NCBI GenBank assembly: GCA_021735655.1
Contig: JAIPGM010000003.1
Span: 32,001-96,000 of the forward strand
DNA from: Candidatus Omnitrophota bacterium
Lineage (GTDB): Bacteria > Omnitrophota > Gorgyraeia > Duberdicusellales > 4484-171
Direction of reading: 5' to 3'
DNA: 64,000 bases
Both the position numbers and the translations under genes were made by a program. Of this stretch, positions 1 through 56,938 are shown piece after piece. How positions within the stretch are numbered: position 1 is the stretch's first letter; each line of letters opens with the position of its first letter. The notes beneath the pieces were generated by a model. The model did not search any database. It was not told the origin of the DNA and saw only the letters and a program-made list of their open reading frames with translations.

Positions 1-2
1 TC

Positions 3-266
3 GGAAAGAACACAATATTAAATACATTATCTTCTATTGACCATGATTGTCAGATTGCAGATTTTGTCCATATTGCTCCCGGTACCAATTTAAGCGGCGG
101 GGTAACTATTGGCAAATTTACTCATATTGGAGTTGGTACAGTTGTTAACCAGGGAATTAATATAGGTTGTAATTGTTTAATCGGTTCAGGCAGCGTAGTG
201 GTTAAAGATATCATTGATAATTTAAAAGCCTTTGGGAATCCTTGTAAAGCTATGGAGAAGAGATGA
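3..266 (+). CDS. Hexapeptide-repeat acyltransferase, 3' fragment (NeuD/PglD-like sugar N-acetyltransferase); 5' end lies outside the window
   Basis: Frame 3 translates to ...HIAPGTNLSGGVTIGKFTHIGVGTVVNQGINIGCNCLIGSGSVVVKD..., the left-handed beta-helix hexapeptide pattern [LIV]-G-x4 found at the C-terminus of NeuD/PglD. It ends at the TGA at 264-266, overlapping the next start as ATGA. Confidence 0.55.
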   Translation, partial: GKNTILNTLSSIDHDCQIADFVHIAPGTNLSGGVTIGKFTHIGVGTVVNQGINIGCNCLIGSGSVVVKDIIDNLKAFGNPCKAMEKR

Positions 267-1159
267 TAAGAATTATACCGCGTCTTGATATTAAAGGTCC
301 TAATCTAGTTAAAGGAGTTCACCTTGAGGGCCTTAGGGTTTTAGGCAAGGCTGAAGATTTTGCTTCAAAATATTATACTGATGGAGCCGACGAGCTTATT
401 TATATTGATGTTGTTGCCAGTCTCTATGGTAGAGAAAATCTTTTAGAGATTGTAAGGAGAACAGCACAAAATATATTTATCCCTTTGACTGCCGGCGGTG
501 GGATAAGGACAATTGACGATATAAAAGAATTATTACGAGCCGGCGCAGATAAGGTAGCAATAAATACTGCTGCCATACGAAATCCAGCCTTTATTAGTGA
601 AGCTGCGAAAGTTTTTGGTTCGCAATGTATTGTTATTTCAATCGAGGCTAAATTTAGAAGTGAAGGTAAGTATGAGGCTTTAACTGATAATGGCAGGGAA
701 AAAACTGATCGTGATGTGTTTGATTGGGTACAGGAGGCGGTTGGCCTTGGTGCCGGAGAACTGCTTATTACTAGTATTGATAAGGAAGGTACTGGTAGAG
801 GATATGATTTGAAGCTAATTAAGAGAATTTCAGAGTCAGTGCCAGTCCCGGTTATTGCCTGTGGCGGTGCTGGAAAGACTAAGCATTTTCTTGAAGTCAT
901 TGAAGACGGTTGCGCCGACGCTATAAGTGCTGCTTCTATTTTTCATTATCATTGTCTAGAAAAGTTGCGCTCCGTTGAAAATTTTAAAGAAGAAGGTAAT
1001 GTTGAGTTCATTAGCCAGAATAGAGAATCATTAGATTTCATGAAAAAGCGGCTTGAACCAGTGGATATTTTAGCTGTTAAAAGATATTTATCTGATTTTG
1101 GTATTGCCTGTAGAGCCATAGAGGCGTTTAGAGAAGTTACAAAAGCAGAAAAGATATGA
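263..1159 (+). CDS. HisF-like imidazole-glycerol-phosphate-synthase cyclase subunit homologue (WbuZ-type, sugar amidotransfer)
   Basis: (beta/alpha)8 HisF motifs: RIIPRLDIKG, DELIYIDV, TAGGGIR and VIACGGAGK. It sits directly beside a HisH-like glutaminase and a PP-loop amidotransferase, as in wbuXYZ/pseA loci. The 298 aa is longer than canonical HisF, indicating a C-terminal extension. Confidence 0.8.
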   Translation: MIRIIPRLDIKGPNLVKGVHLEGLRVLGKAEDFASKYYTDGADELIYIDVVASLYGRENLLEIVRRTAQNIFIPLTAGGGIRTIDDIKELLRAGADKVAINTAAIRNPAFISEAAKVFGSQCIVISIEAKFRSEGKYEALTDNGREKTDRDVFDWVQEAVGLGAGELLITSIDKEGTGRGYDLKLIKRISESVPVPVIACGGAGKTKHFLEVIEDGCADAISAASIFHYHCLEKLRSVENFKEEGNVEFISQNRESLDFMKKRLEPVDILAVKRYLSDFGIACRAIEAFREVTKAEKI

Positions 1160-1848
1160 AAGGATCAAAGCCGATTACTGTGATAGTTGATTATGGAATG
1201 GGCAATCTTTTCAGTCTAGAGAGAGTGATAAGACATCTTGGCGGGACTGCAGTTATATCTTCCGACCCGGAAACTATAGCTTCTGCTGAGCGGGTTATTT
1301 TACCTGGGGTAGGTGCTTTTGGTGATGGTATGGATAAGATAAAAAATCGGGAGTTGGTTGCGCCGATACAAAGAGCTATTGATTCGGGTAAGCCGTTTCT
1401 AGGGATATGTTTAGGCATGCAGCTTCTTATGACCGAGAGTGAAGAGTTTGGTGTTCATGGAGGATTAGATGTTATTTCTGGGTCTGTGCGTAGGTTTTTT
1501 GATTCCAAGGGTGATAAGGCGTCCTATAAGATACCACACGTTGGATGGAACCGCTTGCTTGCTCCTAAGATAGTTGAATTCGGCCAGCCAGTTTCTTGCG
1601 AGGGAAGTAATAAATTTTGGGAGGATACTATTTTAAATACAACTCAAGAGGGTGAATTTGTGTATTTTGTGCATTCGTATACCGTTACCCCTCAGAACCC
1701 TGAGCATATTCTTGCTGAGACTGAATATGGTCAGTCTCGTTTTTGCTCGGCAATACGTTCCAACAATGTGTTTGGCTGCCAGTTTCATCCTGAGGTAAGT
1801 GCGAATGTAGGTTTACGAATCTTAAAAGAGTTTTTATATACTGTTTAA
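1156..1848 (+). CDS. HisH-like class-I glutamine amidotransferase (WbuY-type)
   Basis: VIVDYGMGNLFSL, GVGAFG, a GICLGMQLL catalytic-Cys nucleophile elbow, and a C-terminal FHPE...S motif typical of HisH. The 4-bp overlap with the upstream HisF-like gene suggests translational coupling. Confidence 0.8.
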   Translation: MKGSKPITVIVDYGMGNLFSLERVIRHLGGTAVISSDPETIASAERVILPGVGAFGDGMDKIKNRELVAPIQRAIDSGKPFLGICLGMQLLMTESEEFGVHGGLDVISGSVRRFFDSKGDKASYKIPHVGWNRLLAPKIVEFGQPVSCEGSNKFWEDTILNTTQEGEFVYFVHSYTVTPQNPEHILAETEYGQSRFCSAIRSNNVFGCQFHPEVSANVGLRILKEFLYTV

Positions 1849-3115: not shown

Positions 3116-4195
3116 ATGAAAGACATAAAAAAAATATTTGTAACTAGTAACAATACGATTGAAGAAACTTTAGCTGTTATCCAGCGTGGAGGTGTGGGCA
3201 TAGCTTTGGTTGTAGATAACCAGCAGCATCTAGTTGGCACAATAACTGATGGAGATATCCGTAGGGCTATTTTGAACAAAATCCCTTTAAGTAAAAAAAT
3301 CACTGTCTTGTTTGATTATCGTCCTGAAGACTACCCAGTCCCGGTTTCAATGCCTCATGACATAACTCGTGAAGAGCTCATTGAGATTATGAGTGAGAAA
3401 AAACTAAATCAAATACCGCTCCTCGATAGCGATTCCCACATCGTAGAACTAGCTTTACTTTCGGAGCTTGTCGAAGAAGAGCTTAACTTGCCGGTTAGAG
3501 CAGTAGTTATGGCTGGCGGAAAGGGGCAGCGGTTGCACCCGCTTACTAAAGATACACCAAAACCGATGCTTCTTTTAGAAGATCGTCCCTTGGTGGAACG
3601 TACCATAGCCCAGCTGCGTAGATCAGGAATTACAAAAGTAAATATTTCTACTCATTACAAATCTGATGTGATTATAAAACATTTTGGTAAAGGAGATGCT
3701 TTTGGTGTAGATATTGATTATATTAATGAAGATCAACCATTGGGTACTGCTGGAGCTTTGGGATTAATGAAACCCATTGATGAACCGACTTTAGTTATCA
3801 ATGGAGATGTGTTAACTAAATTAGATTTTCGTAGGTTGCTTGATTTCCATCGCCATCATGATGCGATAATGACTGTAGGGGTGCGCAAGTGCGAGATAGA
3901 GATACCTTACGGAGTTATTGATATTGATGATGTAGTCGTAAAAAAGATTATTGAAAAACCAGTAAAGAATTTTATTGTTAATGCCGGAATTTATTTGTTA
4001 GGACCAATAGCCTATAAGTATATTCCCAAAAATATAAATTTTGATATGACCGATTTAGTTGATGAGTTACTAAAAGCTAAGCATAAAGTAGTCTGCTTTC
4101 CGATACAGGAGTATTGGCTTGACATAGGACATCCTGAAAATTATGAACAAGCAAAGGAGGACATTAAGAATGGCGCACTTCAGCTGGAAAAATAA
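3116..4195 (+). CDS. CBS-domain pair fused to a sugar-1-phosphate nucleotidyltransferase (PtmE-like, possible GlcNAc-1-P guanylyltransferase)
   Basis: The N-terminal ~120 aa look like a CBS pair (VGIALVVDNQQHLVGTITDGDIRRAIL). The C-terminal domain carries the NTP-transferase signature AVVMAGGKGQRLHPLTKDTPKPML. This architecture matches the CBS-nucleotidyltransferase of legionaminic acid pathways. Confidence 0.65.
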   Translation: MKDIKKIFVTSNNTIEETLAVIQRGGVGIALVVDNQQHLVGTITDGDIRRAILNKIPLSKKITVLFDYRPEDYPVPVSMPHDITREELIEIMSEKKLNQIPLLDSDSHIVELALLSELVEEELNLPVRAVVMAGGKGQRLHPLTKDTPKPMLLLEDRPLVERTIAQLRRSGITKVNISTHYKSDVIIKHFGKGDAFGVDIDYINEDQPLGTAGALGLMKPIDEPTLVINGDVLTKLDFRRLLDFHRHHDAIMTVGVRKCEIEIPYGVIDIDDVVVKKIIEKPVKNFIVNAGIYLLGPIAYKYIPKNINFDMTDLVDELLKAKHKVVCFPIQEYWLDIGHPENYEQAKEDIKNGALQLEK

Positions 4196-5171
4196 AAAAG
4201 TTTTTGTTACCGGTGCCGGAGGATTTATCGGAAGTCACTTGTGTGAATGTTTAGTTAAGCTAGGCGCAAAGGTAAAGGCAATGGCAGAGTATAACTCCTT
4301 GGGAAGATGGGGTTGGCTTGATTATTCTAGTTTACATGATGAAATGGATATTTTTTTAGGCGATATCAGAGATAGAGACAGCACCAGAGAAGCTGTTAAG
4401 GGCCAGGATATGGTTTTTCACCTAGCGGCTCTTATAGGTATACCTTATTCTTATATAGCTCCAGCTTCATATATTGAAACTAATATAGCTGGCACTCTTA
4501 ATTTATTGCAAGCAGCAAGAGAGTATGATATCGAATGTTTTTTACAGACCTCAACTAGTGAGACTTATGGAACCGCTCAATATACCCCTATTGATGAAAA
4601 GCATCAACTTCAGGGTCAATCTCCTTATTCAGCTTCGAAAATAGGTGCAGACAAAATGGCAGAGAGTTTTTATCGTTCTTTCAAAGTTCCGGTAGTAACG
4701 GTTAGGCCTTTTAATACCTATGGCCCCAGACAGTCTGCCCGGGCAGTTATACCTACAATTATTACACAAATTTTAGAAAAAGATAAAGTCTGCATTGGTT
4801 CGCTTGCTCCCAGGCGTGATTTGACCTATGTCCAGGATATTGCCTTAGCCTTCATTGGTGCAGCCCAGGCAGGCAAATCTGCCTTTGGTGAAGTGTTTAA
4901 TGTTGGCTCGGGAAAGTCAATATCTATAGGTGAATTAGCCCAAGTGATTGCTAAGCTTATTGGAAAAGAGGTACCCGTAGAAAGCAGTTGCCAGCGTATA
5001 AGGCCAGAGGCTAGTGAAGTAATGTTGTTGATGGCAGATAGTAGTAAAGCTAAAAAAATATTTGGGTGGGAACCAAGCCTTTCTCTAGAAGAAGGACTCA
5101 AGAAAACAATTGAATGGTTTAAGGATAAGGATAATTTAAAGTTATATAAAAATGACCGTTATGTAGTATAA
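4170..5171 (+). CDS. NAD-dependent NDP-sugar 4,6-dehydratase/epimerase (extended SDR, LegB/PseB-like)
   Basis: Rossmann motif VFVTGAGGFIGSHL and catalytic YxxxK (PYSASKIGADK). The start is reassigned to the ATG at 4170, which is preceded by AAGGAGG at 4154-4160; the ORF-track start at 4143 would overlap the upstream gene by 52 nt. Confidence 0.7.
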   Translation: MAHFSWKNKKVFVTGAGGFIGSHLCECLVKLGAKVKAMAEYNSLGRWGWLDYSSLHDEMDIFLGDIRDRDSTREAVKGQDMVFHLAALIGIPYSYIAPASYIETNIAGTLNLLQAAREYDIECFLQTSTSETYGTAQYTPIDEKHQLQGQSPYSASKIGADKMAESFYRSFKVPVVTVRPFNTYGPRQSARAVIPTIITQILEKDKVCIGSLAPRRDLTYVQDIALAFIGAAQAGKSAFGEVFNVGSGKSISIGELAQVIAKLIGKEVPVESSCQRIRPEASEVMLLMADSSKAKKIFGWEPSLSLEEGLKKTIEWFKDKDNLKLYKNDRYVV

Positions 5172-5181
5172 GGTTAAAACA

Positions 5182-6381
5182 ATGAGCTCTATGAATAAAA
5201 AAATTACTGTCAGTACATCAATTAATGACTTAATTCCTTTAAGCGTTCCTGAAATTAAGGGTAATGAATGGAAATATATAAAGGAGTGCCTAGATACCAA
5301 TTGGGTTTCATCAGTAGGAAGTTATGTTGATCAATTTGAAAATGCTGTAGCTGATTATGTTGGGCGCGGTTATGGTGTAGCTTGTGTTAATGGTACATCA
5401 GCCTTGCATGTAGCTCTTTTACTTTCGGGTATAAAATCTCAAGAGGAAGTTTTACTTCCGGCGCTTACCTTTGTCGCACCGGCCAATGCTATTTGCTATA
5501 CTGGGGCAAAGCCAGTTTTTATTGACGTTGATCTTGATAATTGGCAAATAGATACAGGAAAGATTTTAGGGTTTTTGAAAAAAGAGTGTAAATATCAAAA
5601 AGGAAAGTTAATTAATAAGAATACCGGTAGAGTAATTAAAGCAATAATGCCTGTGCATATACTAGGACACCCGGCTGATATGGACGCTATCATGAGCATT
5701 GCCCGAAAATATAAACTAAAAGTTATTGAAGATGCTGCTGAAGGATTAGGGTCAGCCTATAAAAATCGACCTCTGGGAATTTCAGGAGATATTGCTTGTT
5801 TTAGCTTTAATGGAAACAAGATATTAACTACTGGCGGCGGAGGTATGGTTGTTGTTGATAAAAAATCCTGGTCTGATCGGGCCCGTTATCTTATAACTCA
5901 AGCCCGGAATAATGTCTTAGAGAATATTCACAATGAAATTGGCTACAATTACCGCCTGACCAATATTCAAGCTGCTATGGGTTTTGCCCAGATGGAGCAA
6001 CTCGATAAATTTGTTGAGAAAAAGAGAGATATTGCTCGTCGATATAATGAGCAATTAAAAGATGTACCGGGAATCGGCTTACCAAAAGAAGCTTCCTGGG
6101 CTAAATCCAATTACTGGCTATATACAATCTTTGTTGACAGAGCTAAATATAGAATTGATAGCAGAGCTTTATTAGAAAAACTAAAAAGATCTAATATCCA
6201 GACTCGGCCTCTGTGGCACCCTTTACATTCCCTAAAGCCGTTTAAAAAGTGTTTTTCTTACAAGATAAAAGTAGCCAATAAATTGTATAAAAATTGTTTG
6301 AGCTTGCCTTCATCAGTAGGGCTTACCAAGAGCGATCAAAAGAAAGTCATCGACATTATAAAACGCAGTAGGAGCTTGTAA
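5182..6381 (+). CDS. DegT/DnrJ/EryC1/StrS family PLP-dependent sugar aminotransferase (LegC/PseC-like)
   Basis: Fold-type I aminotransferase motifs: a GTSALHVAL, DAAEGLGS, and SFNGNKILTTGGGG in which the PLP lysine is present. Confidence 0.75.
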   Translation: MSSMNKKITVSTSINDLIPLSVPEIKGNEWKYIKECLDTNWVSSVGSYVDQFENAVADYVGRGYGVACVNGTSALHVALLLSGIKSQEEVLLPALTFVAPANAICYTGAKPVFIDVDLDNWQIDTGKILGFLKKECKYQKGKLINKNTGRVIKAIMPVHILGHPADMDAIMSIARKYKLKVIEDAAEGLGSAYKNRPLGISGDIACFSFNGNKILTTGGGGMVVVDKKSWSDRARYLITQARNNVLENIHNEIGYNYRLTNIQAAMGFAQMEQLDKFVEKKRDIARRYNEQLKDVPGIGLPKEASWAKSNYWLYTIFVDRAKYRIDSRALLEKLKRSNIQTRPLWHPLHSLKPFKKCFSYKIKVANKLYKNCLSLPSSVGLTKSDQKKVIDIIKRSRSL

Positions 6382-6393: not shown

Positions 6394-7434
6394 ATGAGCC
6401 CAGACATGAATATAGTGCGTTCCCAGAAACTTGCCGATAAAATTGTTATTGTAGACGGACAACCCGGTTGCGGTAAAACTATGCTTTCACCGATTGTTGC
6501 TGCTTTGGATAGGGTGGAGTTACTTATGTTTGTTTATGAGATAGAATATTTTTGCGCTTTAAGATATTTACAAAAAATGGATAAAGATACAGCCGAAACT
6601 TTAATTAAATTGATTACTGATTTAAGAATTTATAATGCAATGATGTCGCGGGAAGTAAATTTTCGCTTCAGCGATGCTTCAAGCGCCTTTAAAGATATAA
6701 ATCCCCTGAAATACATTAGGAGGCTTTTTCAAAAGGGTGATGACTTGGTCCCTGAAAGAATAAAGAACCAGAGACCAATTTTGCATTTGGCTACCCATGA
6801 TCTCTTAAGCAGGGCCGATTCAGTTTTTGCTGCTTTAGGTGAAAATCTTGTTTTTATAGAGGTGGTGAGGCATCCTTTATACATGCTTAAACAAGAAGCA
6901 GTTAATATGCAGCGGCTATTCTTATCCGATCCTAAGCATTTTGAAGTATATTTTTCTTATAAGGATAAAGAGTTGCCTTATTTTGTTTATGGGTGGGAGG
7001 ATTTATTTTTTTCTTCTAATCATATTGAAAAAGCTATCTATTTAATCAATAGCATGACTGAGAGAACAGAGGCTTTTAAGAATAATGTAGAGGAAAAGTT
7101 GAACGGAGCTAAGTTGATAACAATTCCTTTTGAAGGTTTTGTGATAAGTCCTGAACCTTATTTGAAAGAAATAGAATTAGCTTTAGACACAAAAGTAACT
7201 AAGGCTACGCGTAAAATGATGAAACGTCAGAATGTGCCACGTAAGATGTATGCTCAAGGTGTTAAACTCGATGTTTACGAAAAGTATGGATGGGAGGCAC
7301 CTAAATCAACAGATGAGTATAGTGAATTAAACCTGCGTCGGAAATTTGCCCAAGATAATGCTTCTGAGGATGCAATGGTTGTGCTTGATAGGCTTTCTAA
7401 AAAGTATGAAGATGAATATTTAAATAAAAAGTAA
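6394..7434 (+). CDS. P-loop (Walker A) protein of unknown function inside the nonulosonic-acid module; candidate kinase or sulfotransferase-like enzyme
   Basis: A Walker-A-like VIVDGQPGCGKTML lies near the N-terminus. No other family signature was recognised by eye. The gene is tightly packed between the aminotransferase and the cytidylyltransferase. Confidence 0.3.
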   Translation: MSPDMNIVRSQKLADKIVIVDGQPGCGKTMLSPIVAALDRVELLMFVYEIEYFCALRYLQKMDKDTAETLIKLITDLRIYNAMMSREVNFRFSDASSAFKDINPLKYIRRLFQKGDDLVPERIKNQRPILHLATHDLLSRADSVFAALGENLVFIEVVRHPLYMLKQEAVNMQRLFLSDPKHFEVYFSYKDKELPYFVYGWEDLFFSSNHIEKAIYLINSMTERTEAFKNNVEEKLNGAKLITIPFEGFVISPEPYLKEIELALDTKVTKATRKMMKRQNVPRKMYAQGVKLDVYEKYGWEAPKSTDEYSELNLRRKFAQDNASEDAMVVLDRLSKKYEDEYLNKK

Positions 7435-7448: not shown

Positions 7449-8111
7449 GTGAAAACAATTGTATTAGTTCCGGCAAAACTTAAAAGTGACAGAGTTCCTT
7501 TTAAAAATATAAAACAGTTAGGTGGAGTTCCTTTAGTCAATTATACCATGCGTACTTTAAATAAACTTTCAGACATTAATGATATTGTTGTTTTTGCCTC
7601 AGAGCCTTCCATATGCGAGTATATACAGCGCGGATTAAAATATACATTCCTGGAGCGTCCGACAGAGCTGGATACTCAAGATACAAAAATACAGGATATT
7701 ATAAGAGAGTTTTTAAACAGAAGTGATGCCGATATAGTTGTCCTAGTGCATATTACTTCACCATTTTTGCAGGCTGAAACAATCTCTGACTGCATAAAAA
7801 AGGTTCATTCTGGTCAGTATCATACAGCTTTCACTGCATATGAAGTTAGAAAATTCTGTTGGTTTCGCGATAAACCGCTTAACTATTCTTTAGATAAACC
7901 TACACCACGCACTCAGGATATAAACCCGGTAGTTGTAGAGCAGGCTAGTTTATATGTATTTAGGAGAGAGGTTTTTGAAAAAACAGGCCAGCGGATTTGC
8001 TCTAAGCCTTATATTAAATATATTGATCATTTCGAGGGCCATGATATTGATACTCCGGAAGACTTTAGGGTTGCAGAATTGATTGTTAATACAGGTCTCT
8101 TTGCAATATAG
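7449..8111 (+). CDS. Acylneuraminate cytidylyltransferase family (CMP-nonulosonic acid synthetase, NeuA/LegF/PseF-like)
   Basis: N-terminal VLVPAKLKSDRVPFKNIKQLGGVPLVNYT matches the CMP-NeuAc/CMP-Kdo synthetase glycine-rich loop. GTG start with an AGAGAGG RBS upstream. Confidence 0.75.
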   Translation: MKTIVLVPAKLKSDRVPFKNIKQLGGVPLVNYTMRTLNKLSDINDIVVFASEPSICEYIQRGLKYTFLERPTELDTQDTKIQDIIREFLNRSDADIVVLVHITSPFLQAETISDCIKKVHSGQYHTAFTAYEVRKFCWFRDKPLNYSLDKPTPRTQDINPVVVEQASLYVFRREVFEKTGQRICSKPYIKYIDHFEGHDIDTPEDFRVAELIVNTGLFAI

Positions 8112-49974: not shown

Positions 49975-50579
49975 AAACGAAGAATTTCTTAATTGGAAAA
50001 AATTCTAAAATTGATAAATCGGTAATCTTAGGTGAGAAAACAGGCAGGAAAATTAAGATTTCAAAGACGATTATCGGAAAAGATGCAAGGGTAAGGTCAA
50101 ATACGGTTATTTATTCAAATACTAAGATTGGCGATGGATTGGAGACAGGGCACAATGTTGTGATTCGCGAACAAAACAAAATCGGCAATAATTTAAGTAT
50201 TTGGAATAACTCTACCATTGATTATGGATGTGAAATTGGCAATAATGTTAAGATCCACGCCAATACTTATGTAGCTCAGTTTACTGTCATTGAAGATGAT
50301 GTTTTTCTAGCTCCCGGGGTAATGATTGCAAATGATCCTCATCCTATCTGTACAAAATGCATGAAAGGCCCATTAATAAAAAAAGGGGCACGGATCGGGG
50401 TGAATGTTACGCTTTTACCTAATATTGTAATTGGGGAAAATTCTTTAGTTGGAGCCGGCAGCGTTGTCACTAAGGATGTTGCGGCTAACGTGGTAGTTTT
50501 TGGCTCACCGGCAAAAGTAGGCGGAAGAATTAAAGATTTAAAGTGCAAAGCAAGAATAAAGGATAGAGCCTATGAGTAA
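49971..50579 (+). CDS. Hexapeptide-repeat N-acetyltransferase (WbpD-like)
   Basis: Repeated [LIV]-G-x4 hexapeptides throughout ([31 protein letters not shown]...[13 protein letters not shown]...). Confidence 0.75.
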
Positions 50580-51693
50580 TAATAAGATGAACGTTCCTTT
50601 TGTGGATTTACAGATTCAATATCGTAAGTTGAGCAAGGAAATCAATCAACGGTTAATTGAAACAGTTGAAAGCGGTTCTTTTATTTTAGGTGAAAGTGTT
50701 CAAAAGTTTGAGCAGGAATTTGCTAATTATTGTGGCGCAAAACATGCTGTAGGTATTGCTTCGGGAACTGCTGCTTTATTTTTGTCTCTAAAAAGCTTAG
50801 GAGTCGGCAGGGGAGATGAAGTAATTACTCCGGCAAATACATTTATTGCAACAGCCTTAGCTATTTATTATACCGGAGCAAAGATTATCTTAGTAGACAT
50901 AGATGAAGAAACCTATAATTTAGATATAAAAAAGACAGAAGCGGTAATAAATAGCAAAACCAAAGCTATCCTACCAGTGCATCTTTATGGTCAACCGATA
51001 GATTTAGAGCCTTTACTTGCTTTAGCTAAGAAACACAACTTAATAGTTGTTGAGGATGCTTGCCAGGCTCACGGTGCTGAATATAAAGGCAAAAAGGTGG
51101 GAGGATTCGGTAACGCTGCAGCCTTTAGCTTTTATCCTGGTAAAAATTTAGGTGCTTTTGGTGATGCCGGTATAGTAGTGACTAACGATGAAAAGGTTAA
51201 AGATGAATTGATCATGTTGAGAAACTATGGCCAGAAACAAAAGTATCATCATTTAGTAAAAGGGTATAATTCTCGTTTAGATACAATTCAGGCAGAAATA
51301 TTGAGAGTTAAGCTTGGCTATTTAGACCAATGTAATGAAGAGCGAAGAAAAAGTGCTCAAGTTTATAAAACCTTGCTTCAAAGCATCAGTGACCGTATCT
51401 TAATTCCTAAAGAAATGTCATCAGTAAAACATGTTTGGCATCTTTATGTAATTAGGGCAGAAAAAAGAGATGACTTACAGGAATATCTTAAAAAGGCAGG
51501 GATTAGTACCGGTATACATTATCCTATTCCGATTCATTTGCAGCCGGCTTTTTCTGATTTAGATTATAAGAAGGGAGACCTTCCTGTTACAGAAAAGACT
51601 GCTGATCAGATTCTTTCTTTGCCGATGTACCCAGGGTTAAAAGAAGAGCAAATTGAATATGTTGTGAAAAAAATAAGTGATTTTTTGCAGTAA
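50572..51693 (+). CDS. DegT family aminotransferase (WbpE/GnnB-like)
   Basis: [29 protein letters not shown], and [15 protein letters not shown] with the PLP Lys. Confidence 0.8.
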
Positions 51694-51709: not shown

Positions 51710-52807
51710 ATGAAGCTATTTTTTAAATCTTGGCAGAAAAAAAGTAAAAAGAAGAGAATTCTTTTTGCTGGAGTCTGCCATGCTAATTTCATACAGTTTA
51801 GGCCAATTTATGAGATCCTTAAGCAGGATCCAAGAGTTGAAATTTTATTCTCTGGTATGTATCAAAGTAAAGACCGGCCGCGTGAACTCTATAAACCTTT
51901 TAATATAGATAAGAAATTCATCATAAGAGAAAAGTTCGCAAAAACTTTGAGTTTTGACATCTATATTAGCCCAGATTATCACATGATTGACAATAACTAT
52001 TCTTCAACTATTCAGTTTTTTCACACCACTTCTTTTAGAAATTTCTCAGTTAGTGAAGAGGCAAAAAGCTTTGATCAGATTTTTTTAATTGGGCCGTACA
52101 TGAAGCGTAAGTTTATCGAGGCAGGTATTTTTGAAGTTGATGATCCGAGATTAAAAGAAGTAGGCATGCCGCAAACAGATGCTCTTTTAGATAATATCGA
52201 CACTGGTTTGTCTGAGAGACTTGGCTTAGATAAGAGTCTTCCGACTATACTTTACGCTCCAGTCTGGGCGCCGATAGAGAGCTTTCTTGAAGATGTTCAA
52301 ACAACACTTAAAACTTTAACCTCAATTAAGGCTAATCTTCTTCTTAAGTTGCACGATAAATTTTATTATCAACAGGTAAATAAAATTAGATGGCGGGAGT
52401 TTTTGAATTTGGTGCTAAGCGAGAATAAGAATGTACATTTAATAGATGATTTTGATATTATACCTTACATGAAAATTAGTGATTTGCTTGTCAGCGACGT
52501 TAGTGCTGTTGTACATCAGTTTTCTATATTAGATAAGCCAATAGTATGCATGAAGGTAGATGTTGATGAGTTTAAAAAGTTCTGGCCAGGGCTTGATCAT
52601 AAAGCCTATTTAGATCGCGCGGTAATAGAAGCTTCTCAAGGAGAGGCTTTAAAAGAGGCAGTTTTGGGAGAACTTGCTAATCCTGGCAATTTGAGTCAAA
52701 AACGGATAGCCATGAGTAAAGAGTATTTTTATAATATTGGGTTTTCTGCAAAATGCGCAGTTTCGCAAATTTATCAGTCTTTTAATCTAAAGAATACAGA
52801 TGAATAA
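51710..52807 (+). CDS. CDP-glycerol glycerophosphotransferase family protein (TagB/TagF-like)
   Basis: The TILYAPVWAP segment resembles the TagF-family ...LYAPT[WF]R core. It is followed by a GT-B-like C-terminal half. Confidence 0.5.
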   Translation: MKLFFKSWQKKSKKKRILFAGVCHANFIQFRPIYEILKQDPRVEILFSGMYQSKDRPRELYKPFNIDKKFIIREKFAKTLSFDIYISPDYHMIDNNYSSTIQFFHTTSFRNFSVSEEAKSFDQIFLIGPYMKRKFIEAGIFEVDDPRLKEVGMPQTDALLDNIDTGLSERLGLDKSLPTILYAPVWAPIESFLEDVQTTLKTLTSIKANLLLKLHDKFYYQQVNKIRWREFLNLVLSENKNVHLIDDFDIIPYMKISDLLVSDVSAVVHQFSILDKPIVCMKVDVDEFKKFWPGLDHKAYLDRAVIEASQGEALKEAVLGELANPGNLSQKRIAMSKEYFYNIGFSAKCAVSQIYQSFNLKNTDE

Positions 52808-53903
52808 AAAGCCGCTTTCCTCAAAAAATAGTTTCTTAGTTAAACTGAAAGTCAGCCAAGAAATCCTTATGGATGCCGAGCAAATAGCTATAGGTGGGTA
52901 CGCTCCAGTTGATGGTTTTATGGGAAAGGCTGACTTTGAATCAGTTTTGAATAATATGCGCCTTGTAAAAGGTGATGTTTGGACTTTGCCAATAGTGTTA
53001 GATATAAGTAAAAAAGAAGCAGCATCAATTAAAATCGGGGATGAAATATTGCTTGGTGACGGCCAGGATCAGGAAAATTTTCTTTTTTCTGTGGAAGATA
53101 TTTATGAACATGATAAATCTTTGTATTGCGATAAGGTTTATGGTACTAAAGATGTAGCTCATTCAGGAGTAGCAAAGGTGCTTAAGATGGGAGAGGTCCT
53201 TGTAGGGGGCCGGGTTATATCGGTTTTAAATAATTTTGATTTTGATATGCGTAAATTCACCATGACCCCGAAAGAGACAAAAGCCCAGTTTGAAAAAAAT
53301 AATTGGAAAACGGTTGTTGCTTTTCATACCCGGAATGTGGTGCACAGAGCCCATGAGTATCTTCAGCGCTGTGCTATGGAATATGCCGATGGAATTTTGA
53401 TCCATCCTGCGGTTGGCTTTACAAAACCCGGTGATTTCAAGAAAGAGCTTATAATAAAGGGCTATCAAAGTTTAATTGATAACTATTATCCAAAAAATAA
53501 AGCTCTTCTCTCGGCTTTGGGCATAGGCATGAAATTTGCCGGGCCAAGAGAAGCTGTATTTCATGCCTTGGTGCGGAAAAATTATGGTTGTACACATATA
53601 ATTATTGGTAGAGATCATGCTGGCGTAGGCGGATACTATGAGAAGTATGCCGGACATAAGATATTTTCTAGTTTGCCATCTTTGGGCATAACCCCTTTAT
53701 TATTTAAGGGACCGTTTTATTGCAATAAATGTGAAGCTATGGCTACCGAAAGCACCTGCTCGCATGATGAGTCTTATAGGTCAGAAGTCAGCGGAACATT
53801 AGCTCGTAAATTCATAAAGGAAAAGAAAAAGCTCCCTAAGTGGCTGATGCGTCCTGAAATCGCAAACTTGCTTGAAGACCTCGGTGAAAGCGTTTTTTCT
53901 TAA
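52800..53903 (+). CDS. sat: Sulfate adenylyltransferase (ATP sulfurylase)
   Basis: FHTRNVVHRAHEYL (QTRN...HRAH motif) and IIIGRDHAGVGGYY (GRDHAG motif) are diagnostic of ATP sulfurylase. No APS-kinase domain is fused or adjacent. Confidence 0.8.
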   Translation: MNKKPLSSKNSFLVKLKVSQEILMDAEQIAIGGYAPVDGFMGKADFESVLNNMRLVKGDVWTLPIVLDISKKEAASIKIGDEILLGDGQDQENFLFSVEDIYEHDKSLYCDKVYGTKDVAHSGVAKVLKMGEVLVGGRVISVLNNFDFDMRKFTMTPKETKAQFEKNNWKTVVAFHTRNVVHRAHEYLQRCAMEYADGILIHPAVGFTKPGDFKKELIIKGYQSLIDNYYPKNKALLSALGIGMKFAGPREAVFHALVRKNYGCTHIIIGRDHAGVGGYYEKYAGHKIFSSLPSLGITPLLFKGPFYCNKCEAMATESTCSHDESYRSEVSGTLARKFIKEKKKLPKWLMRPEIANLLEDLGESVFS

Positions 53904-53926
53904 AACTTAAATAAGGAGTAAACAAG

Positions 53927-54469
53927 ATGTTAATAATTTCACAACATGCAAGATTGTTGCATATTCCTTTTCCTGATACTGCTGTATTTAGGGTAAATGT
54001 TGCTTGGATTAAAAGTCAGGAAGAGTTATTCAGCTTACTAAAGCAAATTAAGAATGATGTATTTTTGGATTTTCCTGAAGGGCGATTCAAACCGCCGATC
54101 CCTATTTTAGGTTTAGACGATTTATTGGGAGCCATGGATAGGTTTGACAATATAAAATATTTTGGGGTGACCAATGTGACAGCAGCCGAACAAATTATTG
54201 AAATGAGAAAGAAAGTTCCTCAGAGAGTAATATTAATACCTAAGGTGGAGTCAAGAGAAGGAATAGACAATTTAGAAAAGATACTTGGCCAGCTAGAAAA
54301 GGGTGAAAAATTTATAATGCTAGATAAAGAGGATCTATATACTGATTTAAAGGAGCATAAGGAATTATTTGAACAATATGTTCAGTTGGTAAAAGATAAA
54401 TGCAGGAAAAATAATATTAGCGTGCTTGAGTTGCAAGGTGTGATATTTGCAGCGAATGAAGACTTATAA
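53927..54469 (+). CDS. Hypothetical 180-aa protein; LIPKVESREGIDNLEKIL resembles the active-site strand of the pyruvate-kinase/HpcH TIM-barrel superfamily
   Basis: ORF with an AAGGAG RBS. The motif is comparable to pyruvate kinase IISKIEN.EGV.N.DEIL, but the protein is too short to be a complete barrel. Confidence 0.3.
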   Translation: MLIISQHARLLHIPFPDTAVFRVNVAWIKSQEELFSLLKQIKNDVFLDFPEGRFKPPIPILGLDDLLGAMDRFDNIKYFGVTNVTAAEQIIEMRKKVPQRVILIPKVESREGIDNLEKILGQLEKGEKFIMLDKEDLYTDLKEHKELFEQYVQLVKDKCRKNNISVLELQGVIFAANEDL

Positions 54470-54481: not shown

Positions 54482-55231
54482 ATGTCGGATATATCCGTAG
54501 TTATCGTTACCGAGAATGCTCAAGACACTATCAAAGACTGTCTTGATTCAGCAAGCTGGGCTGATGAAATTGTTGTTGCAGATGCTGAAAGCAGTGACCA
54601 AACAATTGAGATTGTTACTAAATATACAGATAGAATAGTCAAGATCGACCCACAGCTTAATTCTGGACAGCGGTGGAATCAAGCTATAGCCGCAGCAAGT
54701 AAAAATTGGATATTTTTGCTTGAATCCGACAAAAGAATACCGTTGGCTCTAAGGCTTGAATTAGAAAAGAGAGTTAAAGAAAATAAGTTAAAGGATGCAG
54801 ATGGGTATTTAATTAATACAAGAAATTATTTTTTGAACCATTGGGTTAAGACGGCCGGTTTTTATCCCGATCGTAAATTATATATTTTTAGAAAAGGTAT
54901 GGCTAAATTCCAAGAGCGACAACGTGGCTGTATTGTTTTTGAAGGCAAGATTGATAATCTAAACGGGTATATTGAACATTACGTTTATAGATCTTTAGAA
55001 CAGTGTTTTTCTAAAGTAAATAAAGAGTCAGATAATTTGGCAGAAGAATTTTTTGGCCAGGGGTTAATTTTTAAAAAGCGGTTTGTAATCACAAAACCCT
55101 TGAGAACATTTAAAAAACAATACTTTCGTCATCGGGGCTCAAAGCAAGGGATGGCAGGGTTGTTGATTTCTCTTGTCGCTGCTTTTGAATGTTTTTTTGT
55201 CTATATAAAGGTGTGGGCAATTAGGAGATAG
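54482..55231 (+). CDS. GT2 glycosyltransferase, KdtX/WaaE-like (LPS core)
   Basis: SVVIVTENAQDTIKDCLDSASWADEIVVADAESSDQTIEIV parallels the KdtX N-terminus. Confidence 0.65.
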   Translation: MSDISVVIVTENAQDTIKDCLDSASWADEIVVADAESSDQTIEIVTKYTDRIVKIDPQLNSGQRWNQAIAAASKNWIFLLESDKRIPLALRLELEKRVKENKLKDADGYLINTRNYFLNHWVKTAGFYPDRKLYIFRKGMAKFQERQRGCIVFEGKIDNLNGYIEHYVYRSLEQCFSKVNKESDNLAEEFFGQGLIFKKRFVITKPLRTFKKQYFRHRGSKQGMAGLLISLVAAFECFFVYIKVWAIRR

Positions 55232-55232
55232 A

Positions 55233-55997
55233 GTGAAAACAAGGTTGAGTTTTTCAGCGGTTATAATCACTAAGAATGCAGAGGCTAAGATAAGAAATTG
55301 CCTCGAGAGTATAAAATGGGCAGATCAGGTGGTAGTGGTTGATGGATTCTCGACCGATTCGACGGTCGATATTTGTAAAGAGTATGGCGCTAAGATCGTT
55401 CAAAGAAAATTCGAAGGTTTTGATAAAGAAAGAAACGCCGGCATTGAACATGCTTCTGGAGATTGGATTCTTCAGTTAGACGCTGATGAGGTAGTGAGCG
55501 AAGATATGCGCAAGGCTGTAAAGGAAGTGCTTAGTGGTGATGAAAAATATAATGCCTATAAATTTCGCAGGCAGAATTTCTTTTTAGGTAAAGCCATGCG
55601 GTATGGAGGATGGTACCACTACTCTGCTCATTTTTTAAGGAAAGGCAAGGCTCATTATGAAGGCAGCATTCATGAAACTCTTGTTGTTGATGGTCCGATT
55701 GGTAAGTTGGAGGCAGCAGTAGAGCATTATCCTTTTGACAATATATCGGATTTCATCAGGCGTCAAAACAGATACACTAACCTTCAGTCACAAAGGATGC
55801 TCGATGATTTAGGCATTAAAGATGATAAATTTATAAAAAAGAATCTTTTAAAACGAATGCGTAAGGTATTTTGGAAGACTTACATAAAGAAAAAAGGGTT
55901 CAAGGAAGGAATGCATGGTTTAGTATTCAGTATTCTTTTTGTTTGGGTGGAATTTATTAAATGGGCAAAGTATTGGGAACTAGTCAGTAAAAAGTGA
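55233..55997 (+). CDS. GT2 glycosyltransferase, KdtX/WaaE-like (tandem paralogue)
   Basis: SAVIITKNAEAKIRNCLESIKWADQVVVVDGFSTDSTVDICKEYGAKIV. GTG start with an AGGAG RBS. Confidence 0.65.
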   Translation: MKTRLSFSAVIITKNAEAKIRNCLESIKWADQVVVVDGFSTDSTVDICKEYGAKIVQRKFEGFDKERNAGIEHASGDWILQLDADEVVSEDMRKAVKEVLSGDEKYNAYKFRRQNFFLGKAMRYGGWYHYSAHFLRKGKAHYEGSIHETLVVDGPIGKLEAAVEHYPFDNISDFIRRQNRYTNLQSQRMLDDLGIKDDKFIKKNLLKRMRKVFWKTYIKKKGFKEGMHGLVFSILFVWVEFIKWAKYWELVSKK

Positions 55998-56938
55998 AAA
56001 AAGTTTTATTCATTCGTTCAGACAGATTGGGAGAGTTTTTATTGAGCCTCCCAGCAATTAAACTTTTCAAACTTAATTATCCTCAAAGTGATGTTTACCT
56101 TTTGGCTCAAAAAACTAATATTGAGCTAACCAAGGATGTCGACTTCATCGATTATTTTTTAGAATATAAAGAAAATAGCTTTTCTGGCTTTAAAGGAGTT
56201 TTTCGTTTAGCAGCCTGCTTAAGAAAAGAAAAAATAGACTGTTTAGTGGCTATGAACCCTAAAAAGGAGTTTCATCTAGCTGCTAAGCTAGCCGGTATAC
56301 CTTTACGGGTTGGCTATGATCGAAAGTGGGGCTGGTGTTTAAATAAAAAAATTAAAGATAAAAAGTATTTGGAAGAGAAACACGAGGTTGAATATAATAT
56401 AGAATTAGTAAGGTTGATTTGTGGGGATTTGCCAGCGCTCGAAGTTGATCTTAAGGTCGACGGGCAAGAGTCACTAGATTTTTTAAAAGAAGATTTAGAT
56501 ATCTCAAGTTCTTATTTAATAGTTCATCCATTTACTTCTAATCCCTTAAAGAAGGTTTATTTTGAGTTCTGGCGAAGCTTAATAAGACGGTTAAAAGAAA
56601 AAGGCTTTGAAAATATTGTACTTATTGGCGCAACCAGCGAAAAAGAAGAGGCTAAGGAATTAGCAGCTGAGCTGGGAATTATTGACTTAGTTGGAACTAT
56701 GAGCTTGCGTAATCTAGCTGCTTTTATGAAATATAACTGCTCAGCCTTTGTTGGGTTAGATTCGGGGCCAATGCATTTAGCCAGTTTATTCAAAATTCCG
56801 GTGGTAAGCTTATTTACCACTTCAAATCCTAAACGTTGGGGTCCCTGGAAAACCAAGTCTTTGGTTTTTGAGCTAAAACCAAAAGAGGATTTTTCTAATC
56901 AAGTTACTGAGGCAGTAAATTTTATCCTTAAACAATAA
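55994..56938 (+). CDS. GT9 glycosyltransferase (LPS heptosyltransferase family)
   Basis: VLFIRSDRLGEFLLSLPAIKLFKLNYPQSDVYLLAQ... and a C-terminal GLDSGPMHLAS motif. Confidence 0.75.
   Translation: MKKVLFIRSDRLGEFLLSLPAIKLFKLNYPQSDVYLLAQKTNIELTKDVDFIDYFLEYKENSFSGFKGVFRLAACLRKEKIDCLVAMNPKKEFHLAAKLAGIPLRVGYDRKWGWCLNKKIKDKKYLEEKHEVEYNIELVRLICGDLPALEVDLKVDGQESLDFLKEDLDISSSYLIVHPFTSNPLKKVYFEFWRSLIRRLKEKGFENIVLIGATSEKEEAKELAAELGIIDLVGTMSLRNLAAFMKYNCSAFVGLDSGPMHLASLFKIPVVSLFTTSNPKRWGPWKTKSLVFELKPKEDFSNQVTEAVNFILKQ

Follow-up and report, generated by a model that had tools for sequence, protein, structure and literature searches.

Loci for bacterial surface polysaccharides can be very large. The rfb locus of Leptospira ranges from ~4 kb to >100 kb (PMC13111663), and variable polysaccharide cassettes of ~25-26 kb, as well as hypervariable regions of up to 109.5 kb, have been described in Omnitrophota (bioRxiv 10.64898/2026.05.20.726742, 10.64898/2026.06.07.730766). 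Some of the individual sugar pathways are also known. ErwE couples 4-hydroxy-2-oxo acids to CDP-4-keto-3,6-dideoxyglucose to give erwiniose (PMC12247030), the YerE-like enzyme JanthE accepts 4-hydroxy-2-oxovalerate (PMC12188165), and ElaA, ElaB and ElaC constitute a CMP-legionaminic acid 8-epimerase system (PMC13656337). Described herein is a stretch of 64,000 nucleotides from a Candidatus Omnitrophota bacterium (assembly GCA_021735655.1, contig JAIPGM010000003.1, positions 32,001 to 96,000 of the forward strand), referred to as the window, most of which is occupied by genes for glycan biosynthesis.

The uncultured Omnitrophota are for the most part ultra-small and are believed to rely on hosts or prey, and we know of no experimental work on their envelope or lipopolysaccharide (LPS). 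The window appears to be part of a surface-glycan region of at least 84.6 kb with ~78 genes on one strand, which most plausibly provides the O-antigen, the core and the decorations of LPS, and which is cassette-based and hypervariable. We put the probability of this reading at roughly 0.8; further glycoconjugates are possibly served by the region as well.

Extent and contiguity of the region

Genes in the window were mapped by Pfam and NCBIfam scans, with open reading frames (ORFs) counted from 100 aa upward and transmembrane (TM) segments counted by a hydropathy script. With 27.7 kb of upstream DNA of the source contig added, 91.7 kb was examined. Sixty genes were counted in the window (57 ORFs of at least 100 aa, xseB, rpsO and a 5'-truncated gene at 3-266), and all 60 lie on the + strand, in agreement with the original prediction that every credible gene, about 60 in number, would do so. 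Six minus-strand ORFs of at least 100 aa are each nested within a + strand gene that has a family match. This co-directionality is real in the window but regional rather than specific to the locus, since the flank shares the strand and 191 of 207 ORFs in 19 related Omnitrophota loci lie on the strand of xseA.

Positions 3 to 56,938 hold 54 genes, ~45 of which belong to sugar-nucleotide, glycosyltransferase (GT) or glycan-assembly families. The other nine, at 6394, 10092, 14029, 21394, 42619 and 53927 together with two metallo-beta-lactamase (MBL) genes and a VanZ gene, have no family or a generic fold only. The domain scan upholds the view that no housekeeping gene lies within 1-56938: the glycan region is real and not misread, and its hisF/hisH, aroB, dmpFG and acetohydroxyacid synthase (AHAS)-like genes are recruited glycan enzymes. 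Between 12 and 13 GTs were counted, where nine or more had been expected, and one phosphoglycosyltransferase. Housekeeping genes begin where they had been placed before:

56947-63979 (+): xseA, xseB, rpsO, pnp, ftsK and a rodZ-like gene; housekeeping flank and 3' boundary of the glycan region

Summed gene lengths amount to ~98.8% of the window. The 54 junctions of the glycan block comprise 21 overlaps, 25 gaps of 0-30 nt and 8 gaps of more than 30 nt, the largest being 182 nt. Packing is tight, as had been claimed, but overlaps of 4-8 bp are not found throughout, those of exactly 4 or 8 bp accounting for just 15 of the 54 junctions.

Position 1 proved not to be the start of the locus. The window edge cuts a NeuD/PglD-like gene, and glycan genes go on for at least 27.7 kb upstream (record positions 20,045-47,747), where 24 further + strand genes were found. 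The glycan region is therefore continuous over at least 84,641 bp and ~78 genes, a lower bound as its 5' end was not reached, and the window represents the 3' two-thirds of the region seen. The HisF-like protein maps to Logan contig SRR12088349_3401 (90,288 bp), from which the upstream pieces L001 and L040 come and in whose record window position 1 is position 47,748. The upstream genes are as follows:

Upstream set 1 (+): an epimerase, a split transketolase (N and C halves) and a second epimerase, from domain matches
Upstream set 2 (+): a B12-radical S-adenosylmethionine (SAM) protein, a GHMP kinase, a nucleotidyltransferase and a second B12-radical SAM protein
Upstream set 3 (+): an AP_endonuc_2 protein, an aminotransferase, a TIGR00180-family GT and a 601-aa ABC exporter
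Upstream set 4 (+): a 795-aa fusion of an amine-oxidase/GLF-like portion with NeuB, an NAD-binding protein and a NeuB-CTP_transf_3 fusion
Upstream set 5 (+): a DegT protein, a 428-aa protein without assignment and three GFO paralogues
Upstream set 6 (+): CTP_transf_3, SDR, NeuB and NeuC

The split transketolase (L040:384-2154; record 20,428-22,198) has as neighbors two genes for sugar epimerases/reductases and one for a B12-radical SAM enzyme, and possibly represents a second two-carbon branching system, of the transketolase type, in the same locus; transketolase enzymes acting on ketosugars have been predicted and not yet demonstrated (review PMC12247030). The two NeuB fusions (L040:12894-18126), of which the one with CTP_transf_3 measures 587 aa, bring the NeuB domains in the locus to three, counting the stand-alone NeuB.

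The largest gap between genes in the block coincides with a contig end:

42437-42618 (+): intergenic gap of 182 nt with two GC-rich hairpins in an AT-rich genome; Logan break at 42,541

The Logan assembly of run SRR12088349 reproduces window positions 1-42,541 and the upstream 27.7 kb in a single contig; the overlaps compared, 11,159 bases between L001 and the window and 3,106 between L040 and L001, are free of mismatches. This contig ends at 42,541, and a second Logan contig (20,215 bp) starts at the same base. A break exactly at this point, together with the strain variability of such loci in Omnitrophota populations (bioRxiv 10.64898/2026.05.20.726742, 10.64898/2026.06.07.730766), would suit a chimeric contig in which glycan loci of co-occurring strains or genomes had been joined. 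The order of protein accessions on a 278,835-bp contig of an NCBI metagenome-assembled genome (MAG) matches the gene map and was rejected as independent support, because the window probably derives from that contig, as it must if the Logan contig ends at 42,541. An artefact of this kind nonetheless seems exceedingly unlikely. Two contigs abutting at one base are expected of a graph branch and not of unrelated ends, and the adjacency of a Glyco_trans_1_2 gene, a gene for a 150-aa protein and a DegT gene, which spans the break, recurs in L031 (a JGI relative on a 125-kb contig), L032 (NCBI) and L033 (another Logan run). Because these three are assemblies of relatives from other samples, the join at 42,541 is independently supported. 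Moreover, L027, a relative on a 429-kb contig, independently has the order from 20 to 39 kb, and GC, GC at third codon positions (GC3), tetranucleotide pattern and GC skew are homogeneous over the block. Thus, a chimera of separate loci, which the original prediction had named as a reason to abandon it, is not evident.

The gap itself folds with -53.1 kcal/mol (z = -2.17) and holds a weak promoter-like match at 42,457-42,485. It possibly marks a transcription-unit boundary, a regulatory RNA or a site of divergence between co-occurring strains. The break was not put down to a repeat, as no repeat family was found there and none of the fetched loci contains the GC-rich motif. Scans of the window gave no tRNA, Rfam family or repeat family inside the block, and in none of the three 20-kb segments did promoter- or terminator-like consensus matches exceed the number expected from shuffling. 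For the one or few very long polycistronic units of the original prediction, these consensus scans were uninformative. The one strong promoter-like site of the window, its best sigma-70-like match (58,509-58,537; 11 of 12 positions, extended -10 TG), lies in the gap 58496-58649 before rpsO, in which no Rfam rpsO or pnp leader was found at gathering thresholds.

Sugar cassettes

To judge from the gene families, the region would consist of self-contained cassettes, each making one activated sugar. One of these straddles the 5' edge of the window:

3-266 (+): 3' end of a NeuD/PglD-type sugar N-acetyltransferase gene (LegH-like), cut by the window edge; TIGR03570, E 3.8e-29 on 87 aa
263-3087 (+): WbuZ (HisF-like), WbuY (HisH-like) and WbuX N-acetyl sugar amidotransferase trio; NCBIfam
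3116-6381 (+): PtmE-like protein with CBS and nucleotidyltransferase (NTP_transferase) domains, LegB 4,6-dehydratase and LegC aminotransferase; NCBIfam

The truncated gene is whole in L001 (216 aa, PglD_N). LegC (TIGR04181) scores 488.7 bits against a cutoff of 420, and LegB (TIGR04180) 443.4 against 475, with the next-best model, dTDP-glucose 4,6-dehydratase, reaching only 165.6 bits; the LegB and LegC pair of the CMP-legionaminic acid pathway (GDP-GlcNAc route) is thus represented. Directly upstream of the window, L001 holds NeuB with SAF, Epimerase_2, PglD_N/Hexapep and CTP_transf_3, the equivalents of LegI, LegG, LegH and LegF, so that the synthase, epimerase, acetyltransferase and CMP-transferase of the pathway are also present at the domain level. 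The nonulosonic-acid module of the original prediction is thereby confirmed at the family level. WbuX scores 342 bits (cutoff 203) and the HisH-like protein 195.8 bits, and the HisF-like protein gives 280.7 bits with the WbuZ model and 283 with the hisF model, both slightly below the cutoffs. HisF- and HisH-like genes beside WbuX are, by these assignments, the known acetamidino-forming arrangement, and the trio is kept at 75-95% identity in the JGI relative. We suggest that legionaminic acid, a 5,7-diamino-3,5,7,9-tetradeoxynonulosonic acid of D-glycero-D-galacto configuration, would be made from GDP-GlcNAc, and that WbuXYZ would convert an N-acetyl to an acetamidino group. In its arrangement, the GFO/CTP_transf_3/SDR trio that precedes NeuB resembles ElaA/ElaB/ElaC, and would place an Ela-like system just upstream of the legionaminic acid genes.

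As in the CMP-legionaminic acid pathway of Campylobacter and Legionella, PtmE-, LegB-, LegC-, LegH-, NeuC/LegG- and NeuB/LegI-like genes and a CMP-transferase gene occur in one run, and, as in acetamidino modification systems, WbuX/PseA-family amidotransferase components are present. The locus differs from the model pathways in that LegB falls just below its cutoff, and in that three GFO paralogues and two NeuB fusions have no counterpart there.

The next gene is conserved and lacks a family:

6394-7434 (+): 346-aa soluble protein with an N-terminal Walker-A motif (GQPGCGKT); weak P-loop matches only

No Pfam (low stringency included), NCBIfam or PDB match other than the weak P-loop was obtained, and a 66% identical homologue occupies the same position in L037. 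This protein is possibly kinase- or sulfotransferase-like. Its similarity to a Mito_fiss_Elm1 protein of Sulfurovum is not significant, and homology between the two was rejected.

A second cassette would make a branched sugar:

23991-32498 (+): C-branched 3,6-dideoxyhexose module of erwiniose/caryophyllose type; Pfam, NCBIfam and PDB search

It encodes a glucose-1-phosphate cytidylyltransferase, a CDP-glucose 4,6-dehydratase-like protein, an MBL-fold protein, DmpF, DmpG, a YerE/JanthE-like thiamine diphosphate (ThDP) enzyme, an SDR reductase and RfbH/E1. RfbH (694 bits against 423), DmpG (383.6 against 286) and DmpF (399.6 against 282) exceed their cutoffs; the cytidylyltransferase (292.8 against 300.25) and the 4,6-dehydratase (220 against 278) were recorded as just under theirs. 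CDP-glucose formation, 4,6-dehydration and the E1 step are all represented. The ThDP enzyme, which carries the motif GDG at residue 449, scores 372 with the AHAS equivalog model (cutoff 538) and has no AHAS small subunit adjacent to it. Its PDB matches are JanthE (8rph, 420 bits), PpYerE (5ahk, 254 bits) and AHAS (236 or less), which identifies a YerE-like carboligase and not an acetolactate synthase.

DmpG and DmpF interconvert 4-hydroxy-2-oxovalerate with pyruvate and acetaldehyde/acetyl-CoA. Because their genes adjoin and the published donor ranges of ErwE and JanthE fit, the donor would be a 4-hydroxy-2-oxo acid, and we infer that the module is probably of the erwiniose/caryophyllose type, with a DmpFG donor supply beside the YerE-like enzyme. 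In the proposed route, CDP-glucose would be converted by the 4,6-dehydratase and E1/RfbH to CDP-4-keto-3,6-dideoxyglucose, 4-hydroxy-2-oxovalerate would arise from acetyl-CoA and pyruvate through DmpF and DmpG, the YerE/ErwE/JanthE-like enzyme would decarboxylate this donor and add it at C-4, and the SDR would reduce the side chain to yield an erwiniose-like sugar. The C-branched dideoxyhexose pathway claimed earlier is thus borne out at the family level. CDP-glucose activation, 4,6-dehydratase, E1/RfbH, the YerE-like ThDP enzyme and donor makers alongside are shared with the YerE, ErwE and JanthE pathways (yersiniose, erwiniose, caryophyllose), whereas the ThDP motif is the canonical GDG here and CDG in JanthE, no E3 was found here, and a conserved MBL-fold gene lies inside the module.

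This MBL-fold gene, RNase Z-like/Apyc1-like, directly follows the 4,6-dehydratase-like gene in three genomes (25750-26490; L027:7303-8043; L031:1884-2624), and is kept whether or not the DmpFG and ThDP genes are present. We know of no role for such an enzyme in 3,6-dideoxyhexose pathways.

The most novel piece of the locus, and its most promising lead, is a fifth putative cassette, built around a dehydroquinate synthase (DHQS)-like gene:

7449-10025 (+): CMP-type cytidylyltransferase, DHQ-synthase-like protein and SDR; Pfam CTP_transf_3, DHQ_synthase and adh_short

The DHQS-like protein (8123-9262) scores 318 bits with the aroB model TIGR01357 (cutoff 305). Aligned to the DHQS of V. cholerae (3okf), it keeps the motifs GGGxxGD, DSSxGGK, E..K, K…R..LN.GH..GH, HGE and DKK, which we take to be the NAD, metal, phosphate and carboxylate sites known for the DHQS of A. 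nidulans. By score and catalytic motifs it matches AroB of the shikimate pathway, whereas its genomic and phylogenetic behavior is not that of a housekeeping aro gene: in five loci of four phyla the DHQS-like gene is flanked by CTP_transf_3 and SDR genes in glycan loci, and never by aro genes there. The cassette was located within the glycan/LPS loci of Omnitrophota, Zambryskibacteria (candidate phyla radiation), Brocadiaceae and Sulfurovum (Campylobacterota), at L034:6325-9633, L035:7001-9718, L036:5664-8895 and L037:17156-19748. In Sulfurovum mangrovi, the DHQS-like gene lies between two CTP_transf_3 genes and an SDR gene, with GT4 genes and a lipid A acyltransferase gene adjoining; in Zambryskibacteria it lies beside Wzm/Wzt and is followed by SDR and CTP_transf_3; and in Brocadiaceae two CTP_transf_3 genes precede it, and an SDR and a radical SAM/SPASM gene follow.

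Homologues 52-71% identical to the DHQS-like protein occur in Omnitrophota, Zambryskibacteria, Ignavibacteriae, Brocadiaceae, Saganbacteria, Sulfurovum and Arcobacter, and its neighbors are also conserved across phyla (cytidylyltransferase 47-65%, SDR 57-69% identity). Canonical aroB of Pasteurella is just 38% identical, and was all that a search of a plasmid collection returned; a scan of metagenome contigs gave no close relatives. Because the neighbors are conserved with it and canonical aroB is far more distant, the DHQS-like gene is best predicted to belong to a conserved glycan cassette and not to be a stray shikimate gene. The retained residues argue for a putative DHQS-type chemistry on a phosphorylated 3-deoxy-ulosonate. 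A role as the oxidoreductase of an Ela/Epa-type nonulosonic-acid epimerase was downgraded, as the phosphate and carboxylate residues of a true DHQS are retained. Acinetobacter AciA might also be DHQS-like, although the literature searched gave neither confirmation of this nor any description of the cassette.

A bolder proposal is that the cassette is an undescribed, horizontally spread module by which a 3-deoxy-ulosonate phosphate is turned into a new acidic unit activated with CMP, within a recombination-driven 'sugar library' of at least 85 kb. The product might be a carbocyclic, quinate-like 'carba-ulosonic acid' or, as another possibility, a deoxygenated ulosonic acid. We regard the proposal as doubtful. 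If true, it would add a building block so far unrecognized in bacterial surface glycans, a new class of monosaccharide, to a library that would include the transketolase-type branching system, four radical SAM enzymes and the two unusual NeuB fusions, and that could set phage or host specificity in ultra-small Omnitrophota.

The remaining sugar genes lie toward the 3' end:

42619-48916 (+): cupin-like 150-aa protein, DegT, polyprenyl-phosphate-type GT2, B12-radical SAM protein, 8-TM GT-C protein (PMT_2) and GT2; Arn/Gtr logic
48967-51693 (+): GFO-family 3-dehydrogenase (GFO_IDH_MocA), hexapeptide N-acetyltransferase (Hexapep) and DegT aminotransferase
51710-54469 (+): CDP-glycerol-type glycerophosphotransferase, ATP sulfurylase and conserved 180-aa protein; Pfam/NCBIfam

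The label 'Arn-like' that had been given to the first of these fails at the equivalog level (ArnB model 200 against 631, ArnC 52.8 against 529, PMT_2 25.8 against 26.1), so that none of ArnB, ArnC and ArnT is represented and the resemblance is one of class. ArnA and ArnD were not found in the window; a Formyl_trans_N gene occurs in the relative L027 only. An aminotransferase, a polyprenyl-phosphate GT2 and a multi-pass GT-C protein in one run are shared with Arn/Gtr systems, whereas the embedded B12-radical SAM and cupin-like genes are not, leaving a resemblance in logic: an aminosugar would be loaded on a lipid carrier, flipped and transferred outside the cytoplasm. L031 and L008 have this module in collinear order at 71-94% identity. 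The 150-aa protein (42619-43071) directly before DegT has cupin-like His/Gly motifs, no significant Pfam match and 94% identity to its counterpart in the JGI relative; a function as sugar ketoisomerase is possible.

The GFO/aminotransferase/acetyltransferase trio has, at the domain level, the composition for a UDP-2,3-diacetamido-2,3-dideoxy sugar (WbpB/WbpE/WbpD or GnnA/GnnB type), its GFO protein scoring 186 against 450 with the UDP-GlcNAc 3-dehydrogenase model. It would thus make a 2,3-diacetamido sugar, and the diacetamido module claimed before holds at the family level. As a unit the trio is absent from L008, L031 and L033.

Candidates for sulfation and glycerophosphate transfer had also been named, and both genes exist (Glyphos_transf 63.4 bits; Sat 443 against 387). 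For sulfation, ATP sulfurylase is the one gene found, and a route through 3'-phosphoadenosine-5'-phosphosulfate is not represented. The accompanying 180-aa protein has a weak HpcH/PK-barrel match, and all three proteins are 82-83% identical in the JGI relative. Adenosine-5'-phosphosulfate (APS) itself, or another adenylylated anion, may be used by the ATP sulfurylase group (52800-54469).

Assembly genes and the number of end products

Genes predicted to act in assembling the glycans are interspersed with the cassettes:

10092-15828 (+): 722-aa protein without assignment, SAM methyltransferase, radical SAM/SPASM enzyme and 599-aa protein without assignment; Pfam, NCBIfam
15853-23920 (+): RmlD, GT2, 9-TM Wzy-like protein, methyltransferase, GT4, 10-TM membrane protein and WecG/TagA (GT26); Pfam/NCBIfam
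32495-34611 (+): polyprenyl-phosphate-type GT2 and initiating phosphoglycosyltransferase of the WbaP/WcaJ class; Bac_transf, CoA_binding_3
34694-39668 (+): VanZ, ComEC-C-terminal-like MBL, Wzy_C ligase/polymerase, soluble alkaline-phosphatase-family protein and GT9; conserved scaffold
39697-42436 (+): membrane-anchored (~7 TM) alkaline-phosphatase-superfamily protein and Glyco_trans_1_2 transferase; Pfam Phosphodiest, Glyco_trans_1_2
54482-56938 (+): two small GT2s and a second GT9 abutting xseA; Pfam/NCBIfam

The phosphoglycosyltransferase scores 434.5 bits with EPS_sugtrans (cutoff 295.6), and the best matches of the neighboring GT2 are AglJ and PpgS. Two O-antigen-ligase-like proteins had been predicted; the one at 35976 is a strong Wzy_C match (79.8 against a cutoff of 31.7), but the Wzy-like protein at 17710 stays below the cutoff (28.3). 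The initiating enzyme and the Wzy/WaaL family of a Wzx/Wzy O-antigen system are thus both present, and a fused ABC exporter of PglK/MsbA type lies upstream of the window. We envisage that assembly starts with the WbaP-type enzyme and is extended by ~12 GTs, that export proceeds by the upstream ABC protein or an unrecognized flippase, that Wzy_C-family proteins polymerize the product or join it to a core made by the GT9 enzymes, and that alkaline-phosphatase-family and glycerophosphotransferase enzymes add phospho-substituents.

Positions 54482-56938 probably represent the core-oligosaccharide end of the locus, and in L002-L004, L006-L008, L010 and L011 the gene immediately before xseA is a homologue of GT9 or GT2. 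Of the two GT9 heptosyltransferases claimed, both GT9 genes stand (Pfam Glyco_transf_9, 80 and 101 bits) and are candidate heptosyltransferases, but every NCBIfam equivalog model (WaaC, WaaF, WaaQ) remains below cutoff (best 117 against 134.6). No ADP-heptose synthesis genes were found in the window, and a GHMP kinase and nucleotidyltransferase pair lies upstream. The two GT2s said to be KdtX-like have no specific NCBIfam match and only weak ones to unrelated GT2 families.

Among the less readily placed proteins, the 722-aa and 599-aa proteins are possibly GT-B-like transferases, going by C-terminal motifs read by eye. The 599-aa protein matches TIGR04326 and TIGR04396 ('surface carbohydrate biosynthesis protein') weakly, PDB sequence searches gave nothing usable for the proteins at 6394, 10092 and 14029, and homology of the 10092 protein to a 642-aa Brocadiaceae protein was rejected, the similarity not being significant. 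RmlD (15853-16737; 256.9 bits against 224) stands without RmlA, RmlB or RmlC in the window, either as an orphan reductase acting on another 4-keto sugar or with partners elsewhere. VanZ and the ComEC-C-terminal-like MBL always precede the Wzy_C gene (34694-37235; L027:16287-18881; L031:5525-8003), the three making up a conserved triad beside the phosphoglycosyltransferase gene.

The original prediction took these genes to encode one highly decorated glycan. The inventory fits several product lines equally well: it comprises three NeuB-domain genes, four CTP_transf_3 CMP-transferases, three to four membrane proteins of Wzy/GT-C type, two kinds of enzyme for initiation or priming (the WbaP-type phosphoglycosyltransferase and WecG/TagA) and an ABC exporter, which suggests an export route other than the Wzy-dependent one. 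The segment could then be a surface-glycan depot, in which independent glycoconjugate systems (for example LPS O-antigen and core, nonulosonic-acid glycosylation of a pilin, a flagellin or an S-layer protein, and a capsule or teichoic-like polymer) are encoded side by side; the TagF-like glycerophosphotransferase, the gap at 42.4-42.6 kb, which could part transcription units, and the Zambryskibacteria cassette beside Wzm/Wzt are in keeping with this. It is a serious alternative, though not the favored one. Packing is nonetheless continuous (46 of the 54 junctions do not exceed 30 nt), the order of the scaffold is conserved in three genomes, and no target protein, PglB/PglL-class oligosaccharyltransferase, Wza, Wzc or KpsMT was recognized in the 91.7 kb. 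Besides, a depot is compatible with most of what is proposed for an LPS locus, and differs only in the number of end products.

Conservation, exchange and comparison with known loci

In a search with XseA, the best matches were Omnitrophota MAGs (56-71% identity), and the order xseA-xseB-rpsO-pnp-ftsK-rodZ is kept in more than 20 Omnitrophota loci. Where XseA is 53-71% identical, the genes immediately upstream of xseA, and on its strand, include homologues of the GT9, GT2, radical SAM and Wzy_C genes of the window. The glycan region as a whole is therefore not a lineage-specific insertion, a point that the original prediction had proposed to check by the synteny of the xseA flank. In L004 (JAIWAR010000010.1), whose label is 'Methanosarcinales archaeon', the xseA-xseB-rpsO-pnp-ftsK-rodZ block is 52-79% identical to the present one and has bacterial glycan genes upstream; the contig probably belongs to Omnitrophota and was mis-binned into an archaeal MAG. 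A similar resemblance to Omnitrophota is seen in several 'uncultured Planctomycetia' third-party annotation MAGs.

Composition bears on whether the block was acquired recently, as a mobile genomic island inserted beside xseA. GC ranges from 0.31 to 0.40, and GC skew is positive in every 2-kb window. The comparison with the window flank that had been proposed gave a modest difference only: block GC is slightly lower (0.359 against 0.388), as is GC3 (0.303 against 0.318), and the block-flank correlation of relative synonymous codon usage (0.916) is barely under the minimum of 200 size-matched glycan subsets (0.956 +/- 0.011, minimum 0.917). Surface-glycan genes have also been reported as cargo of mobile elements in Omnitrophota, and the more distant relative L019 (XseA 50% identical) has no homologous glycan genes upstream of xseA. 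An island is nevertheless highly unlikely. Tetranucleotide correlation to the whole stays at 0.92-0.98 without a sharp break, and the window, beyond which the 5' boundary lies, shows no integrase, transposase, tRNA or att flank, or flanking repeat. The codon reference comprises six genes including the highly expressed rpsO and pnp, which are enough to explain the difference, so that expression could account for it as easily as foreign origin. Moreover, the anchoring must be old, because glycan genes abut xseA over 53-71% XseA identity.

What varies among relatives is the content of the locus. L027 is collinear from GT4 to GT9, with three extra genes (two on the minus strand) and a formyltransferase gene after GT9. 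The scaffold of the JGI relative reads PGT-VanZ-MBL-Wzy_C-GT9-GT1_2-150aa-DegT-GT2-B12rSAM-GT-C-GT2-...-Glyphos-Sat-181aa-GT2-GT2 (PGT, phosphoglycosyltransferase; rSAM, radical SAM), and lacks the DmpFG/ThDP/SDR genes, both phosphodiesterase-family genes (the membrane-anchored one among them) and the diacetamido trio. The order from VanZ to GT9 recurs in L027 and L031-L033, in the latter three without the phosphodiesterase-family gene. From the HisF-like gene to the xseA end, the JGI relative measures ~76 kb as compared to 56.7 kb here, and its one-strand glycan genes, among which are another NeuB, an ABC exporter and further radical SAM genes, extend as far as 104 kb in the record.

Identities to L027 are 52% for DdhA, 68% for DdhB, 86% for the MBL protein, 89% for DmpF, 94% for DmpG, 90% for the ThDP enzyme, 57% for Wzy_C and 82% for the phosphodiesterase-family protein. 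In the JGI relative, blocks of 83-95% stand beside blocks of 54-70%, with XseA at 64%, and some glycan proteins have partners at least 90% identical in other genomes, whereas XseA has none. Because identity jumps from 52% to 94% between neighboring genes, the region is best read as a recombining mosaic, with a conserved scaffold by xseA and modules that are present or absent. Cassettes would be inserted, deleted and exchanged on the xseA-anchored scaffold among related Omnitrophota, giving a hypervariable surface-antigen locus.

Several points weigh against an LPS locus of this kind. Neither lipid A/Kdo genes (lpx, kdsA, waaA) in the 91.7 kb examined nor Wzx, Wzz or Wzm/Wzt in the window (no Polysacc_synt, MurJ or Wzz match) were recognized, and both GT9 proteins are below all heptosyltransferase equivalog cutoffs. 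Given the missing lpx, kdsA and waaA and the GT9 scores, attachment to LPS rather than to proteins, an S-layer or a capsule is put forward as a prediction. The pathways also have gaps. No ferredoxin-NADP-reductase-type gene for E3 (DdhD/AscD), the usual reductase partner of E1, was recognized in the 91.7 kb or in L027, and E3 could be encoded elsewhere; the window has no APS_kinase or Sulfotransfer family match for an APS kinase or a sulfotransferase, and no TagD, the activating enzyme of the glycerol-phosphate branch. Part of the identity contrast may stem from unequal rates (Wzy and VanZ fast, DmpG slow), but a 52% DdhA next to a 94% DmpG is hard to explain by rate alone. The JGI relative was compared except for the middle 43 kb of its locus, and all gene functions are family-level predictions for an uncultured organism.

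By this account, one lineage devotes at least 85 kb to surface sugars, which would be a few percent of a genome of the ~2-Mb size reported for one Omnitrophota chromosome. A scaffold with exchangeable cassettes would serve as a map for comparing strains, predicting determinants of phage and host recognition, and mining enzymes such as those of the DHQS-like cassette, the B12-radical SAM proteins that would modify sugars, and the YerE-type carboligase, which is encoded together with a donor supply.

The size of the locus had been called unusual, but precedents exist in Leptospira, in some strains of which rfb exceeds 100 kb, and in the variable polysaccharide cassettes already described in Omnitrophota. 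Leptospira rfb, whose genes lie nearly all on one strand, is likewise a very large, gene-dense and strain-variable surface-polysaccharide region with signs of horizontal exchange, and two unassigned proteins of the window weakly match the Leptospira-named families TIGR04326 and LIC_10190. It differs in its phylum, in its flanks (MarR to DASS there, xseA here), and in that the YerE/DmpFG branched sugar, the three NeuB domains and the DHQS-like cassette are features of the present locus. The Omnitrophota polysaccharide cassettes, which have been compared with the SAR11 hypervariable region, stem from the phylum of the present region and resemble it in content (O-antigen ligase, heptosyltransferase II, many GTs, an exporter) and in strain-variable, recombining behavior. 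The described Omnitrophota cassettes measure ~25-26 kb, whereas the present region is continuous over at least 84.6 kb on an xseA-anchored scaffold, its variability being known from the loci of a few relatives. Thus, in size and diversity the region is at the upper end of the range and not unprecedented, a mosaic hypervariable surface-polysaccharide locus of a known kind.

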